Assembly (NCBI RefSeq): GCF_965641715.1
Contig: NZ_OZ282458.1
DNA length: 7,176 nt
Direction: 5' to 3' (one strand)
Source of the DNA: Escherichia coli
GTDB taxonomy: Bacteria > Pseudomonadota > Gammaproteobacteria > Enterobacterales > Enterobacteriaceae
Part shown: positions 2,040 to 6,470 of the stretch, in pieces
Numbering within the stretch: position 1 is the first letter of the stretch
How the letters are laid out: every line of letters begins with the position of its first letter
The notes under the pieces: generated by a model
The model's database searches: none
What the model was told of the DNA's origin: nothing
The model's input: only the letters and a program-made list of their open reading frames with translations
Made by a program: the position numbers and the translations under genes

Positions 2040-2280
2040 CCCGCTCCGGTCCCCGTCTTCTTCGCTTCCGAAAGCATGAAAAAAATCCGTTTCAGCAGTC
2101 TCTGGCTGGCAATTCCTGCGTGATTCACATGGCTGCATAGCTATGCATGTGGTTAAAATTTACCGGGTGCGATCGCGGCAGTTTTTCGGGTGGTTTGTTG
2201 CCATTTTTACCTGTCTGCTGCCGTGATCGCACCGAACGCGTTTCTGCGGTGCGGGCAACGGATGTTATGGTAAATACAAT
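2040..2280. promoter_or_regulatory. cer: cer-like plasmid multimer-resolution site (accessory sequences plus XerC/XerD core)
   Basis: Segment cgcggcagtttttcgggtggtttgttgccatttttacctgtctgctgccgtgatcgc...gaacgcgttt...gcggtgcg...ttatggtaaat closely matches recalled ColE1 cer. Perfect palindrome tgcatagctatgca at 2134-2147 lies about 110 bp upstream of the core, where ArgR binds in cer. Confidence 0.75.
2248..2275. promoter_or_regulatory. XerC/XerD recombination core: XerC arm GGTGCGGGCAA, 6-bp central region CGGATG, XerD arm TTATGGTAAAT
   Basis: XerD arm is identical to the ColE1 cer/dif-type consensus TTATGGTAAAT. XerC arm differs from cer (GGTGCGTACAA) at two positions. Central region is 6 bp rather than the 8 bp of ColE1 cer. 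Confidence 0.7.
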
Positions 2281-2332: not shown

Positions 2333-2539
2333 TCAACCTTCAGCATCTAACTTGTCTATCGCTTTTTTATTGCGCCGATAGGTAGCCATTAGTTCACCAT
2401 CGCCTGATTGTAAGTCACGACCTGCTTGCTCAGCATAGGTATCGTTTACAGTCTTAGCGCCTTTTTTATAGGCCTTTTTAACATCATCAAATCCGGCTTG
2501 GATGACTTCTTTCGGCTTTTCTTGAGGTAATTTAGCCAT
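2333..2539 (-). CDS. Hypothetical 68-aa protein, second gene of a two-gene operon; function unknown
   Basis: ORF MAKLPQEKPKEVIQAGFDDVKKAYKKGAKTVNDTYAEQAGRDLQSGDGELMATYRRNKKAIDKLDAEG. ATG at 2539 preceded by GAGGA with 8-nt spacing. Start overlaps the upstream gene's stop (ATGGCTAA, 8-bp overlap), implying translational coupling. AT-rich like the neighbouring R-M genes. Confidence 0.6.
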   Translation of the reverse strand: MAKLPQEKPKEVIQAGFDDVKKAYKKGAKTVNDTYAEQAGRDLQSGDGELMATYRRNKKAIDKLDAEG

Positions 2540-2915
2540 GCTGTGAATCCTCTATAAGGTTGATTATTTTTCCAACAGATAAGACGGCATCTTCTGTGTC
2601 GCTGATTTTATGATTTATCCAACCGTCCTCTATCTTTAATTTGTTCACTACTCCTAATGTAAAAACAACCTTTTTTTCAGGAAAGAAAATTGCAAAGGTT
2701 CTACTTTTCTCTTTCCAATCAGAGGGCGGCGTCGAACGGAACGCTACATTCCTCGATTTAAGTATCGCTTTGATTTTACTAATTAATTCTTTTTTTTGTT
2801 TATTGCTGAGATTTTTGACGAACCCTTTGCTGAGATTGTCTGTGTAATCATCAAAAGAAATATCAACTGGTTTGTTTTTTTGTTTTTTATCAGATAGATG
2901 AACAATGTTTGACAC
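2532..2915 (-). CDS. Hypothetical 127-aa lysine-rich protein, first gene of the two-gene operon; function unknown
   Basis: ORF ...SNIVHLSDKKQKNKPVDISFDDYTDNLSKGFVKNLSNKQKKELISKIKAILKSRNVAFRSTPPSDWKEKSRTFAIFFPEKKVVFTLGVVNKLKIEDGWINHKISDTEDAVLSVGKIINLIEDSQHG. Initiation codon at 2915 is GTG, preceded by AGGA with 6-nt spacing. No motif I recognise. Confidence 0.6.
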   Translation of the reverse strand: MSNIVHLSDKKQKNKPVDISFDDYTDNLSKGFVKNLSNKQKKELISKIKAILKSRNVAFRSTPPSDWKEKSRTFAIFFPEKKVVFTLGVVNKLKIEDGWINHKISDTEDAVLSVGKIINLIEDSQHG

Positions 2916-3519: not shown

Positions 3520-4581
3520 TTACTTTATTTCATCAAACAGGTGAGATGCAGTATAATAAACGCTTTGATCAAAGCGTCTCTCTGGGCTTAATTTATTTTG
3601 CCCGCCATTTAAAATTATTTCTTTTAATACTGATGGTGGAAGGATGGGTTTTGTTCTTCTTGGGTGATCCATATAAGCTTTTGTTATTTTTCCGTTTAGC
3701 GAGAACTCTTTATCACTTTGATATCCAAAGTTCATCTCAGTATAAATTCTATTGATGTTTGTCTTGTTTTTGCTCGCAATTTCATACACCATTCTGGCGA
3801 GTCTGGCTGATGATCTCATTAGTCTGCTGGCAGATGAATTGTTATATGAGGATCTATCAATAAAGGTTCGACACAAAGCAAAATCACTCCAGATGAATAT
3901 GTCAAAGGCATTTTGATCTAATATTGGGCTCTTGCCTTTTGTTTTCCATAATGGTTGCATTAAAAAAGGTTTCTGGTAATCAAGAAAATTTTCTTGGAAA
4001 GTGTTTAGGCAATTTAATATATTTTCTTTCTTTGAAAGAACTTCAGTTTCATTCCCCCAGTGCTGTATGCTTTCGCATGTGGATTCAAATATTTTTCTTA
4101 TTTCATGGAATTTATCGCTGCAAGAGTGCATTATGCCAAGGGCACAATAAGAAGTGCTTGCAGGTCTTATTACAATCTCTGAACTCCATTCGCTCTCGTT
4201 TTCTTTATATGTCGTGCTATCTGGGAGTACGGTTAATTTTATTTCTAGTGCTTTTAAAAAACTATTGTTTCCTTTTATAACTAGATCTATTCCTTTTATG
4301 TCATCATAAGCATACTGTTGGTATGGTTCATATTTTTTCTCAAATTGAAATTCAAGATCACTATTTTTTAATGTTGTGTTAAAAACGAAGTCAAAAGATA
4401 CTTCTTTGGCATGCACTTTTAAATCCTTATCTAAATAAAGATAAATCGGATTCATTTTGTTGTCTCTCATATAACATGCTAGAGAGGTGGGAAAAGAACT
4501 GTTAAATTGGTTCTTTCCCCACAGATCGCTCTCTTTCCTGTTGGTGTTTTTTAAACCATAAAGAGATTCTATTTTGCTCAC
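3520..4581 (-). CDS. Putative Type II restriction endonuclease, PD-(D/E)xK-like
   Basis: 353-aa ORF divergent from the C5-methyltransferase gene. GTG start at 4581 preceded by AGGAG with 6-nt spacing. Translation contains D99 (GIDLVIK) then 13 residues to E113-I-K115 (ALEIKL), the spacing expected for a PD-(D/E)xK catalytic core. AT-rich. No match recalled to a named enzyme. Confidence is about 0.85 that it is a real gene, about 0.55 for the function. Confidence 0.6.
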   Translation of the reverse strand: MSKIESLYGLKNTNRKESDLWGKNQFNSSFPTSLACYMRDNKMNPIYLYLDKDLKVHAKEVSFDFVFNTTLKNSDLEFQFEKKYEPYQQYAYDDIKGIDLVIKGNNSFLKALEIKLTVLPDSTTYKENESEWSSEIVIRPASTSYCALGIMHSCSDKFHEIRKIFESTCESIQHWGNETEVLSKKENILNCLNTFQENFLDYQKPFLMQPLWKTKGKSPILDQNAFDIFIWSDFALCRTFIDRSSYNNSSASRLMRSSARLARMVYEIASKNKTNINRIYTEMNFGYQSDKEFSLNGKITKAYMDHPRRTKPILPPSVLKEIILNGGQNKLSPERRFDQSVYYTASHLFDEIK

Positions 4582-4668: not shown

Positions 4669-5826
4669 ATGAGAATAATTGATCTTTTTAGTGGGTGTGG
4701 GGGGTTATCCCTAGGCTTTTTGAAGGGGGGGTTTGATGTTGTAGGTGCTTATGATTTCTGGGATCCTGCTATTGAATGTTACAGAGATAATTTTAGCCAT
4801 CCGATAAAAAAACTAGATTTGAGCAATGTTGATGATGTGGTGAGGGAGCTTAAAGATATAGACTTCGATATGATTATTGGAGGGCCTCCTTGCCAAGACT
4901 TCAGTCATGCAGGTTTAAGAATTGAAGGTGCTAGAGCTAACTTAACTCGCTCATTTTCAGAAATTATAAAAAGAATAAAGCCAAAGTGGTTTGTGATGGA
5001 AAATGTAGATCGGGCATTAAGAAGTGGTGCCTATTTAGAAGCTCGAGGAATCTTTAAAGAATCAGGGTATGGGTTAACAGAAATTGTTTTGGATGCCAGT
5101 AAGTGTGGTGTTCCGCAAAAAAGAAAAAGATTATTTGTAATTGGAAAGCTTGACGTGAGGGATGGTTTTATCCTTAACGAAGTGATGTGCGGGATATCGA
5201 AAGATAGTATGACAGTTAGAAATTATCTTGGTGATTCATTGGGGATTGAGTATTATTACAGACATCCGAGAAATTATAACAGAAGGGCTATTTTCTCTAT
5301 TGATGAACCTGCGCCAACAGTAAGAGGGGTTAATAGACCGATACCTGATGGATATTTAGGGCATGCAGGCGATCCTGTCAGTATTTCTGAGAATGTAAGG
5401 CCATTAACAACCTTTGAAAGAGCAAGATTGCAAACATTTCCTGAAGACTTTAAATTTAAAGGTGCAAAAACAAATTTGGAGCAAATGATAGGTAATGCTG
5501 TTCCGGTTGAGTTAGCAAAATATGTTGCGGTGACAATCATGGAGTATGAAAAAAAACAAGTAAAAGGTATTTATGATAAAGAAGGCTTTAGGGCGTGGTT
5601 GCTGAATGAAAAGAAACTAACAAAAAGAACCTCTAGCGATATTATATCTAGATGTTGCAGAGGTGTTTCATTTTTTGATTCAGAGGGGGTGGATTTTTAT
5701 AACTGTGAAATAGATGAAATTATTATGAAACTGGAAAGGCTTGAATCGTTTGTCAGGCTTGGGGTTAGCCTGAAGTCTCAGTTAAGAAGGGCTTTTAAAT
5801 TATATTACGAATATTGTCGAAGGTAA
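4669..5826 (+). CDS. DNA (cytosine-5)-methyltransferase with a C-terminal extension of about 95 aa
   Basis: All canonical C5-MTase motifs in order: motif I FSGCGG (aa 7-12), motif IV GGPPCQDFS (catalytic Cys75), motif VI ENV (aa 111-113), motif VIII QKRKR (aa 150-154), short target-recognition region, motif IX RPLTTFERARLQTFPEDF, motif X GNAVPVELAKYVA. About 95 further residues follow motif X. Confidence 0.92.
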   Translation: MRIIDLFSGCGGLSLGFLKGGFDVVGAYDFWDPAIECYRDNFSHPIKKLDLSNVDDVVRELKDIDFDMIIGGPPCQDFSHAGLRIEGARANLTRSFSEIIKRIKPKWFVMENVDRALRSGAYLEARGIFKESGYGLTEIVLDASKCGVPQKRKRLFVIGKLDVRDGFILNEVMCGISKDSMTVRNYLGDSLGIEYYYRHPRNYNRRAIFSIDEPAPTVRGVNRPIPDGYLGHAGDPVSISENVRPLTTFERARLQTFPEDFKFKGAKTNLEQMIGNAVPVELAKYVAVTIMEYEKKQVKGIYDKEGFRAWLLNEKKLTKRTSSDIISRCCRGVSFFDSEGVDFYNCEIDEIIMKLERLESFVRLGVSLKSQLRRAFKLYYEYCRR

Positions 5827-5922: not shown

Positions 5923-6470
5923 GTAAACAAAAAAACCACCGCTACCAACGGTGGTTTGTTTGCCGGAATCTAGAGCTACCAACTCTTTCTTCCGAAGGTA
6001 ACTGGCTTGGTGGAGCACAGATACCAAATACTGTCCTTCTAGTGTAGCCGCAGTTAGGCCACCACTTCAAGAACTCTTAATATCTCAATCCACCTTGTCC
6101 AGTTACCAGTGGCTGCTGCCAGTGGCGCTTTGTCGTGTCTTACCGGGTTGGACTCAAGACGATAGTTACCGGATAAGGCGCAGCGGTCGGGCTGAACGGG
6201 GGGTTCGTGCACACAGCCCAGCTTGGAGCGAACGACCTACACCGAACTGAGATACCAACAGCGTGAGCTATGAGAAAGCGCCACGCTTCCCGAAGGGAGA
6301 AAGGCGGACAGGTATCCGGTAAGCGGCAGGGTCGGAACAGGAGAGCGCACGAGGGAGCTTCCAGGGGGAAACGCCTGGTATCTTTAAGTCCTGTCGGGTT
6401 TCGCCACCTCTGACTTGAGCGTCGATTTTTGTGATGCTCGTCAGGGGGGCGGAGCCTATGGAAAAACGCC
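5923..6470 (+). ncRNA. RNAII replication primer precursor of the ColE1-type replicon (3' end approximate)
   Basis: Long near-identity to the pMB1/pUC ori sequence (GTAAACAAAAAAACCACCGCTACC...GGGGAAACGCCTGGTATCTTTA...GGAGCCTATGGAAAAACGCCAGC) with clustered substitutions in the 5' stem-loops. Confidence 0.8.
5925..6034 (-). ncRNA. RNAI antisense copy-number control RNA (about 108 nt)
   Basis: Reverse complement begins ACAGTATTTGGTATCTGTGCTCCACCAAGCCAGTTACC... and ends at the GCGGTGGTTTTTTTGTTTAC terminator, as in pMB1 RNAI. Promoter on the minus strand: -35 TTGAAG and -10 TACACT within 6035-6070. Confidence 0.8.

Follow-up and report, generated by a model that had tools for sequence, protein, structure and literature searches.

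Positions 2068-2275 of the plasmid sequence analyzed here (7,176 bp, hereafter the window) very probably form a functional multimer-resolution site of the cer family, with a core of the common 28-bp class. It belongs to the core class most often found in this family, and its exact core has already been catalogued and tested. We are led to this reading by a core that is unique in the window and carries a cer-type XerD-binding arm, an adjoining accessory region close in sequence to that of ColE1 cer, an ArgR box at -114, and the orientation of the site. It is further supported by published tests of an identical core in plasmid pIGRW12, by the wide conservation of the site, and by the finding that a 6-bp central region is the norm in the family. 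Against it stand the accessory region of the tested pIGRW12 site, which shares the core but is only about 65% identical to that of the window, a distance from ArgR box to XerD arm of 131 bp versus the modal 132 bp, a putative -35 hexamer one base weaker than its ColE1 counterpart, and dimer-length records in the same plasmid family.

End-to-end alignment indicates that the window is essentially one whole small plasmid. It is 98.6-98.7% identical over its entire length to E. coli plasmids of approximately 7 kb, such as pSTEC310_3 (CP061256, 7,178 bp), and it also aligns with versions of the plasmid bearing a Tn3-family insertion. RNAI, together with an encoded Rop protein, points to a ColE1-type replicon, and the window as a whole is a complete ColE1-like mobilizable plasmid of about 7.2 kb with restriction-modification cargo of the HindVP type. 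The genes and elements surrounding the site are:

263-1828: relaxase of the ColE1-type mobilization region
963-1481: MbeB, ColE1-type mobilization region
1488-1721: MbeD, ColE1-type mobilization region
2285-2329: short inverted repeats I2 and I3, overlapping each other, in the interval that separates the core from the first cargo ORF
2333-2539 and 2532-2915, minus strand: small ORFs of 68 and 127 aa that overlap each other and open the cargo module next to the site
3520-4581, minus strand: HindVP-family restriction endonuclease (cargo)
4669-5826: C5 cytosine methyltransferase (cargo)
5927-6032, minus strand: RNAI of the ColE1-type replicon (Rfam, gathering threshold)

The site lies between the mobilization genes and the cargo, which is the place of cer in ColE1. 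On its cargo side, the two small ORFs matched no family in Pfam or NCBIfam, and in relatives they carry the annotation 'hypothetical protein'. The repeats I2 and I3 (AGCCAGTCTT/AAGACTGACT and GAAAAGTC/GACTTTTC) take up the space that separates the XerD arm from the end of these leftward ORFs. These may constitute a terminator of the leftward ORFs at 2333-2915 that insulates the site from cargo transcription; our terminator scanner made no call on them.

The core of the site occupies positions 2248-2275 (GGTGCGGGCAACGGATGTTATGGTAAAT, 28 bp) in an 11-6-11 layout:

2248-2258, plus strand: XerC-binding arm, GGTGCGGGCAA, 11 bp
2259-2264, plus strand: central (crossover) region, CGGATG, 6 bp
2265-2275, plus strand: XerD-binding arm of cer type, TTATGGTAAAT, 11 bp

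This arrangement agrees with the preliminary description of the sequence, which had read a cer-like site here as GGTGCGGGCAA-CGGATG-TTATGGTAAAT with a 6-bp spacer. An 11-bp XerC arm, a central region of 6-8 bp and an 11-bp XerD arm are what define the core of cer-like sites, and the 6-8 bp range is itself part of the published definition (PMC11724359, PMC2699498). When the window was searched with a degenerate cer pattern (GGTGCGNNCAA-N6-TTATGGTAAAT, allowing at most three mismatches), this core was the sole match, and none of 200 dinucleotide-preserving shuffles produced one; we accordingly rejected a chance resemblance to cer. The register is unambiguous. With a 6-bp central region, the left arm agrees with the XerC arm of dif at 8 of 11 positions; we rejected the 7- and 8-bp registers, in which agreement falls to only 2-4 of 11. 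None of the other XerD-arm-like decamers in the window adjoins a credible XerC arm, and a second Xer site in the window was rejected on that ground.

Comparison with characterized sites places each element of the core within the cer family. We re-read the sequences of ColE1, ColA, CloDF13, pIGRW12 and psi from their records, and took that of mwr (pJHCMW1) from the supplement of PMC11724359; a search for the mwr core in positions 1-700 of NC_003486 did not find it. In its machine-read form, supplementary file 1 of that paper shows TTAAGGA (7 nt) as the central region of ColE1 and gives the XerC arm of mwr only 10 nt. The ColE1 record gives TTAAGGGA (8 nt), and sequences taken from the supplement text need to be checked against records.

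ColE1 cer (NC_001371, core at 3909-3938) reads GGTGCGTACAA-TTAAGGGA-TTATGGTAAAT. Its XerD arm is identical to that of the window, whereas its central region has 8 bp rather than 6 and its XerC arm differs at two positions (TA in ColE1, GG in the window, arm positions 7-8). The window thus lacks the 8-bp central region, the GGTGCGTACAA arm and the 30-bp core that mark ColE1 cer in the strict sense. The preliminary description had given the ColE1 spacer as 8 bp and called the XerC arm of the window a variant, and both statements are borne out by the record; alignment with cer, psi, dif and other sites leaves the difference in spacer length from ColE1 (6 versus 8 bp) standing. The closest relative of the core is in pIGRW12 (NC_010898, core at 2377), where all 28 bp are identical. 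Like the window, pIGRW12 is a small mobilizable ColE1-like plasmid whose site follows mbeD and has an ArgR-type accessory region. Its cargo differs, its accessory region is about 63-67% identical to ours, and its ArgR box (TGCATGACTATGCA) lies at -115 rather than -114.

The remaining characterized sites differ mainly in the XerC arm. ColA (NC_001373) reads GGTGCCGACAA-CGGATG-TTATGGTAAAT, with a central region and XerD arm identical to those of the window and an XerC arm two positions away; its accessory region is of the ArgR type and has the same layout with diverged sequence and the ArgR box at -115. CloDF13 parB reads GGTACCGATAA-GGGATG-TTATGGTAAAT, also with its ArgR box at -115. In mwr, the central region (CAGATG, 6 bp) is one base removed from that of the window, the XerD arm is identical, and the XerC arm (GGTGCACGCAA) differs at two positions; mwr has a poor ArgR box and is sensitive to osmolarity and supercoiling (PMC2699498), whereas the box of the window is a perfect palindrome. 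Mismatches to the XerC arm GGTGCGGGCAA accordingly number two for ColE1 cer, ColA and mwr, one for psi and none for pIGRW12. This arm is among the commonest in the list of PMC11724359, where it occurs in combination with six different central regions. CGGATG itself is the central region of both ColA and pIGRW12 as read from their records, and is one base off mwr CAGATG and CloDF13 GGGATG. The XerD arm TTATGGTAAAT is the same in ColE1, ColA, CloDF13 and pIGRW12, one position off that of dif and two off that of psi.

The preliminary description had characterized the central region as dif/psi-like. This holds for its length: psi (pSC101) and chromosomal dif also have 6-bp central regions. The feature does not discriminate, however, as most cer-type sites share it, and the likeness does not extend to sequence. 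The central regions of psi and dif are unrelated to CGGATG, which is that of ColA. The dif/psi XerD arm is TTATGTTAAA(C/T), whereas that of the window, TTATGGTAAAT, is of the cer type. Accessory sequences separate the sites further. The accessory region of psi is of the ArcA type, and a search upstream of psi found no ArgR box; dif functions without an accessory region and is activated by FtsK, whereas the window has an ArgR-type accessory region. The XerC arm of psi (GGTGCGCGCAA) shows a single difference from GGTGCGGGCAA.

Survey data indicate that a 6-bp spacer is nothing unusual within the family, in which it is the majority state. Among the unique enterobacterial Xer sites listed in PMC11724359, 53 have the exact XerD arm TTATGGTAAAT, and the majority of these (31) have a 6-bp central region, compared with 16 of 7 bp and six of 8 bp. 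Our own scan for ATTTACCATAA-N6-8-TTNNNNGYACC, applied to one genome per species, gave a similar distribution. Approximately half of its raw rows were chance matches in unrelated genomes, and we required an ArgR box at 105-125 bp; the resulting counts apply to a filtered sample and should not be taken as a census. Among the matches listed, 59 sites passed this filter, comprising 33 with 6 bp, 22 with 7 bp and four with 8 bp, and the exact arm and central region of the window made up the most frequent core (9 of 59, again among the matches listed). Six-bp cer-type sites read directly from records include ColA, CloDF13 parB and pIGRW12, and ColE3 (CGGGAG) and mwr (CAGATG) are given as 6-bp sites in the supplement of PMC11724359. 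Six bp is the commonest central-region length in cer-type sites, and the 8 bp of ColE1 is a minority state.

The scan also returned small contigs with enterobacterial cer-type sites inside assemblies labelled Streptomyces, Bradyrhizobium, Streptococcus, Corynebacterium, Microbacterium, Arthrobacter, Pseudomonas and others (loci L004, L007, L014, L045, L046, L068, L077, L084, L086, L090, L093, L111-L114 and others). Most likely, these reflect contamination by small plasmids of the E. coli type.

The exact site and its core are widespread. When PLSDB was queried with 46 bp that span the core, 560 records matched, of which 345 reached 99% identity or more; among the matches listed, the full 28-bp core is covered. 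The core-bearing plasmids come from Enterobacter, Escherichia, Klebsiella, Salmonella, Citrobacter and other genera. The exact accessory region together with the core is found at 99% identity or more in approximately 109 PLSDB plasmids. Of 5,426 complete E. coli genomes, 729 contain related accessory regions, on plasmids in every case. One catalogued example, NC_017654, is 100% identical to the window across the 128 bp that precede the core and the whole core, XerD arm included, and 99.7% identical over a longer stretch; its site is listed as ArgR-type at position 11270 (PMC11724359).

Beside the XerC arm, the window contains the accessory sequences expected of a cer-type site, together with a putative promoter and transcript:

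2068-2247, plus strand: accessory sequences beside the XerC arm, spanning about 180 bp and homologous to those of ColE1 cer (from alignments; left limit approximate)
2133-2159, plus strand: putative Pcer promoter, with -35 CTGCAT at 2133-2138, a 15-bp spacer and -10 TAAAAT at 2154-2159
2134-2148: ArgR box, TGCATAGCTATGCAT, with the 14-bp core TGCATAGCTATGCA at 2134-2147
2166-2243, plus strand: putative Rcd-like transcript region, a long hairpin with 16-bp arms at 2166-2181 and 2218-2233 (inverted repeat I1)

Between the ArgR box and the core, the accessory region shares 88.6% identity with that of ColE1 cer, in keeping with the preliminary description, which had judged the two very close; identity drops upstream of approximately 2128. 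Accessory regions of cer-type sites extend some 180-200 bp beside the XerC arm, and that of the window is homologous to them and is also found in identical form in many catalogued plasmids. The ArgR box has a perfectly palindromic 14-bp core, which recurs unchanged as the ArgR site given for NTP16 in supplementary file 1 of PMC11724359. It starts 114 bp ahead of the XerC arm; the corresponding distance is 113-115 bp in all 59 scanned sites among the matches listed. In ColE1, the box (TGCATAGGTATTCAT/TGCATAGGTATTCA) lies at -113, and its right half reads ATTCA where the window has ATGCA. The orientation of the site also follows the family. RNAI is encoded on the minus strand and RNAII consequently on the plus strand, on which the ArgR box starts at 2134 and the core only at 2248. 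Read-through from RNAII would therefore arrive at the ArgR side of the site before the core. In ColE1-like plasmids, this orientation of cer-type sites is reported to be invariant (PMC2831885).

The accessory region probably also encodes a checkpoint RNA of the Rcd type. In the literature, Rcd is a transcript of roughly 70 nt made in the direction of RNAII from a Pcer promoter with a 15-bp spacer (PMC5935869; PMC2831885). We assigned the promoter hexamers of the window by position relative to TTGCAT-15 bp-TAAAAT of ColE1: the -10 hexamer and the 15-bp spacing are kept, and the -35 hexamer is one base weaker. A promoter and terminator scan of positions 2000-2400 gave no hits, with a scanner that accepts only spacers of 16-18 bp, whereas Pcer is reported to have 15 bp. 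Rfam, at the gathering threshold, matched only RNAI in the window, and it contains no Rcd family. Orientation to the replicon, the Rcd-like hairpin and the putative arrangement of -10 hexamer and 15-bp spacer are common to ColE1 cer and the window.

The hairpin has a predicted minimum free energy of -43.6 kcal/mol, compared with -36.6 kcal/mol for its ColE1 counterpart. Its stem has a U-A pair in place of a C-G pair of ColE1, and one extra base in the window (G at 2178) pairs with a base that is bulged in ColE1. We observe that, relative to ColE1, the hairpin at 2166-2233 is kept via compensatory changes. RNAalifold returned no consensus structure for the 59 diverse accessory regions, whose alignment is too divergent, and we instead counted pairs with the two stem strands in register or slid against each other. 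Among the matches listed, pairing across the 59 unique accessory regions occurred in 67% of cells in register, compared with 40-47% when slid by 1-3 columns. Several pair types occur per position, and covariation is visible across these accessory regions, among the matches listed.

Comparison of spacing between the ArgR box and the core (over window positions 2134-2275, loci L003-L122, L002 and L124-L127) revealed a regular pattern. Among the matches listed, the box is at -115 in 28 of 33 sites with a 6-bp central region and at -114 in 21 of 22 sites with 7 bp; in ColE1, with 8 bp, it is at -113. The distance from box to XerC arm therefore co-varies with central-region length, such that the distance from box to XerD arm is 132 bp in most sites; the accessory region would in this way compensate for the length of the central region. 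This remains so when accessory regions are clustered at 80% identity: 132 bp is found in 23 of 30 cluster-by-class combinations among the matches listed. The window combines -114 with a 6-bp central region, giving 131 bp, as do a few other natural sites. There is a slim chance that the site, as a natural off-register chimera, differs measurably in resolution efficiency or selectivity from both parental types. The spacing pattern is our only lead to anything non-standard, and it is a weak one.

The accessory region and the core of the window each occur in other combinations in other plasmids. Plasmid pB-9427-4 (NZ_CP086263, 7,939 bp) is identical to the window in backbone and accessory region for at least 420 bp up to -4, including the ArgR box at -114. 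Its core reads GGTGCGTACAA-TAAGGGA-TTATGGTAAAT, with a 7-bp central region and a ColE1-type XerC arm, and beyond the XerD arm it is unrelated to the window. A 65-bp query made of the accessory-region end and 7-bp core of the pB-9427-4 type matched 143 PLSDB records. As judged from these alignments, the site of the window is mosaic, combining an accessory region of the ColE1/ColK type with a core of the 6-bp class. A second boundary coincides with the end of the site:

2275/2276: junction of backbone and cargo modules, at the outer end of the XerD arm

Plasmid pP136-8 (5,128 bp) is identical to the window over a stretch of at least 420 bp that ends at 2276 and includes the entire XerD arm, and is unrelated after it; of 1,015 plasmids matching positions 2200-2800, only 20 run past approximately 2283. 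Taken with the patterns in pB-9427-4 and pIGRW12, these figures indicate that three parts reassort among plasmids, namely the backbone with its accessory region, the core and the cargo. Such reassortment is consistent with reviews that describe cointegrates as forming and being resolved at Xer sites (PMC6764390). The junction between accessory region and core needs another event, because a single canonical Xer crossover keeps the XerC arm with its accessory region. Homologous exchange or conversion in the shared GCGGTGCG is one candidate.

Published data on the identical core bear directly on function. In the 'cloned xrs' sheet of PMC11724359, it is entered as IGRW12, NC_010898, 4995, position 2377, ArgR, GGTGCGGGCAACGGATGTTATGGTAAAT. 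The pIGRW12 site recombined in wild type and in an ftsK mutant and failed to do so in xerC and pepA mutants (Fournes et al., NAR 2025, PMC11724359), and FtsK-induced recombination in vitro was negative (Table 1 of that paper). The entries for ColE1 cer in the same table are the same. This result goes most of the way to answering the suggestion, made in the preliminary description, of behaviour different from that of textbook cer: the identical core tests the same as ColE1 cer. Recombination at cer and at the 6-bp mwr alike stops at the Holliday junction, whose resolution is then Xer-independent (Trigueros et al., PMC2699498), and sites of 28, 29 or 30 bp can all recombine in a manner dependent on accessory sequences and proteins (PMC11724359).

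By homology with these systems, we envisage the following reaction. ArgR would bind the box at 2134-2148, and PepA together with ArgR would wrap the two directly repeated accessory regions of a plasmid dimer around each other, trapping three crossings. With XerC bound at 2248-2258 and XerD at 2265-2275, the interwrapped synapse would activate XerC to act first and exchange the top strands at the edge of the central region (6 bp), yielding a Holliday junction. The junction would probably be resolved without catalysis by XerD, as for cer and mwr, converting the dimer into two monomers. Since the synapse is expected to form only between direct repeats on one molecule, the reaction would resolve dimers and not make them.

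Other outcomes of strand exchange merit consideration. The XerC arm is a single position away from that of psi, and the central region has the length found in psi and dif, so the site might follow psi-like chemistry, in which XerD performs the second strand exchange and complete Xer-catalyzed products form with no stop at the Holliday junction. We consider this unlikely. A counterexample is mwr: its central region, also of 6 bp, differs by one base, its XerD arm is identical, and its recombination, which requires ArgR and PepA, goes no further than the Holliday junction; moreover, the XerD arm and central-region sequence of the window are of the cer/ColA type. A more far-reaching proposal is that the site has relaxed selectivity and recombines without ArgR, PepA or accessory sequences, also between molecules. 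It would then drive cointegrate formation and module exchange, not resolution only. A laboratory cer/parB 'type II hybrid' reportedly behaves with relaxed selectivity (Summers, 1989). The site of the window is a natural chimera, joining the accessory region of the ~7.9-kb plasmids with 7-bp cores, up to -4, to a core of the 6-bp class. Homology to other plasmids breaks exactly at its XerD arm, and reviews cite Xer sites for cointegrate formation as well as resolution (PMC6764390). The identical core, however, is inactive in a pepA mutant and shows no FtsK activation in vitro, which makes the core itself accessory-dependent, and similarity would be expected to end at the XerD arm wherever an Xer site is shared, given even rare events over evolutionary time. 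We consider relaxed selectivity very improbable.

We give marginally less credence still to a defective or relic site, that is, a sequence that is kept but no longer stabilizes the plasmid. The xrs of the pPCP family is noted as apparently inactive (PMC11724359 supplement), mwr is inefficient in standard broth (PMC2699498), and dimer-length records exist in the plasmid family. The core of the window, on the other hand, is identical to one shown to be active in pIGRW12; its ArgR box is an intact palindrome, the same as that of NTP16; and about 100 plasmids have kept the site at 99% identity or more, with the core present in several genera. The dimer-length records include NZ_CP159167 (13,930 bp), NZ_JBSZTH010000005 (13,927 bp) and NZ_CP148429 (13,431 bp). 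NZ_CP159167 is an exact head-to-tail dimer in which every gene is repeated with a period of 6,965 bp and the site is present in two copies; the other two were judged to be dimers solely by record length and by how many matches each record gave. Such records may reflect imperfect resolution, but duplication during long-read assembly, a common artefact, is the simpler explanation.

We therefore return to the reading of a functional cer-family resolution site. Its importance beyond correct annotation is small, and the lesson for annotation is that there is no reason to mark a cer-like site as unusual on account of a 6-bp spacer. For the plasmid itself, the site would account for the monomeric state and stable inheritance of a multicopy restriction-modification plasmid, and it marks a junction at which cargo modules are exchanged among ColE1-like plasmids.
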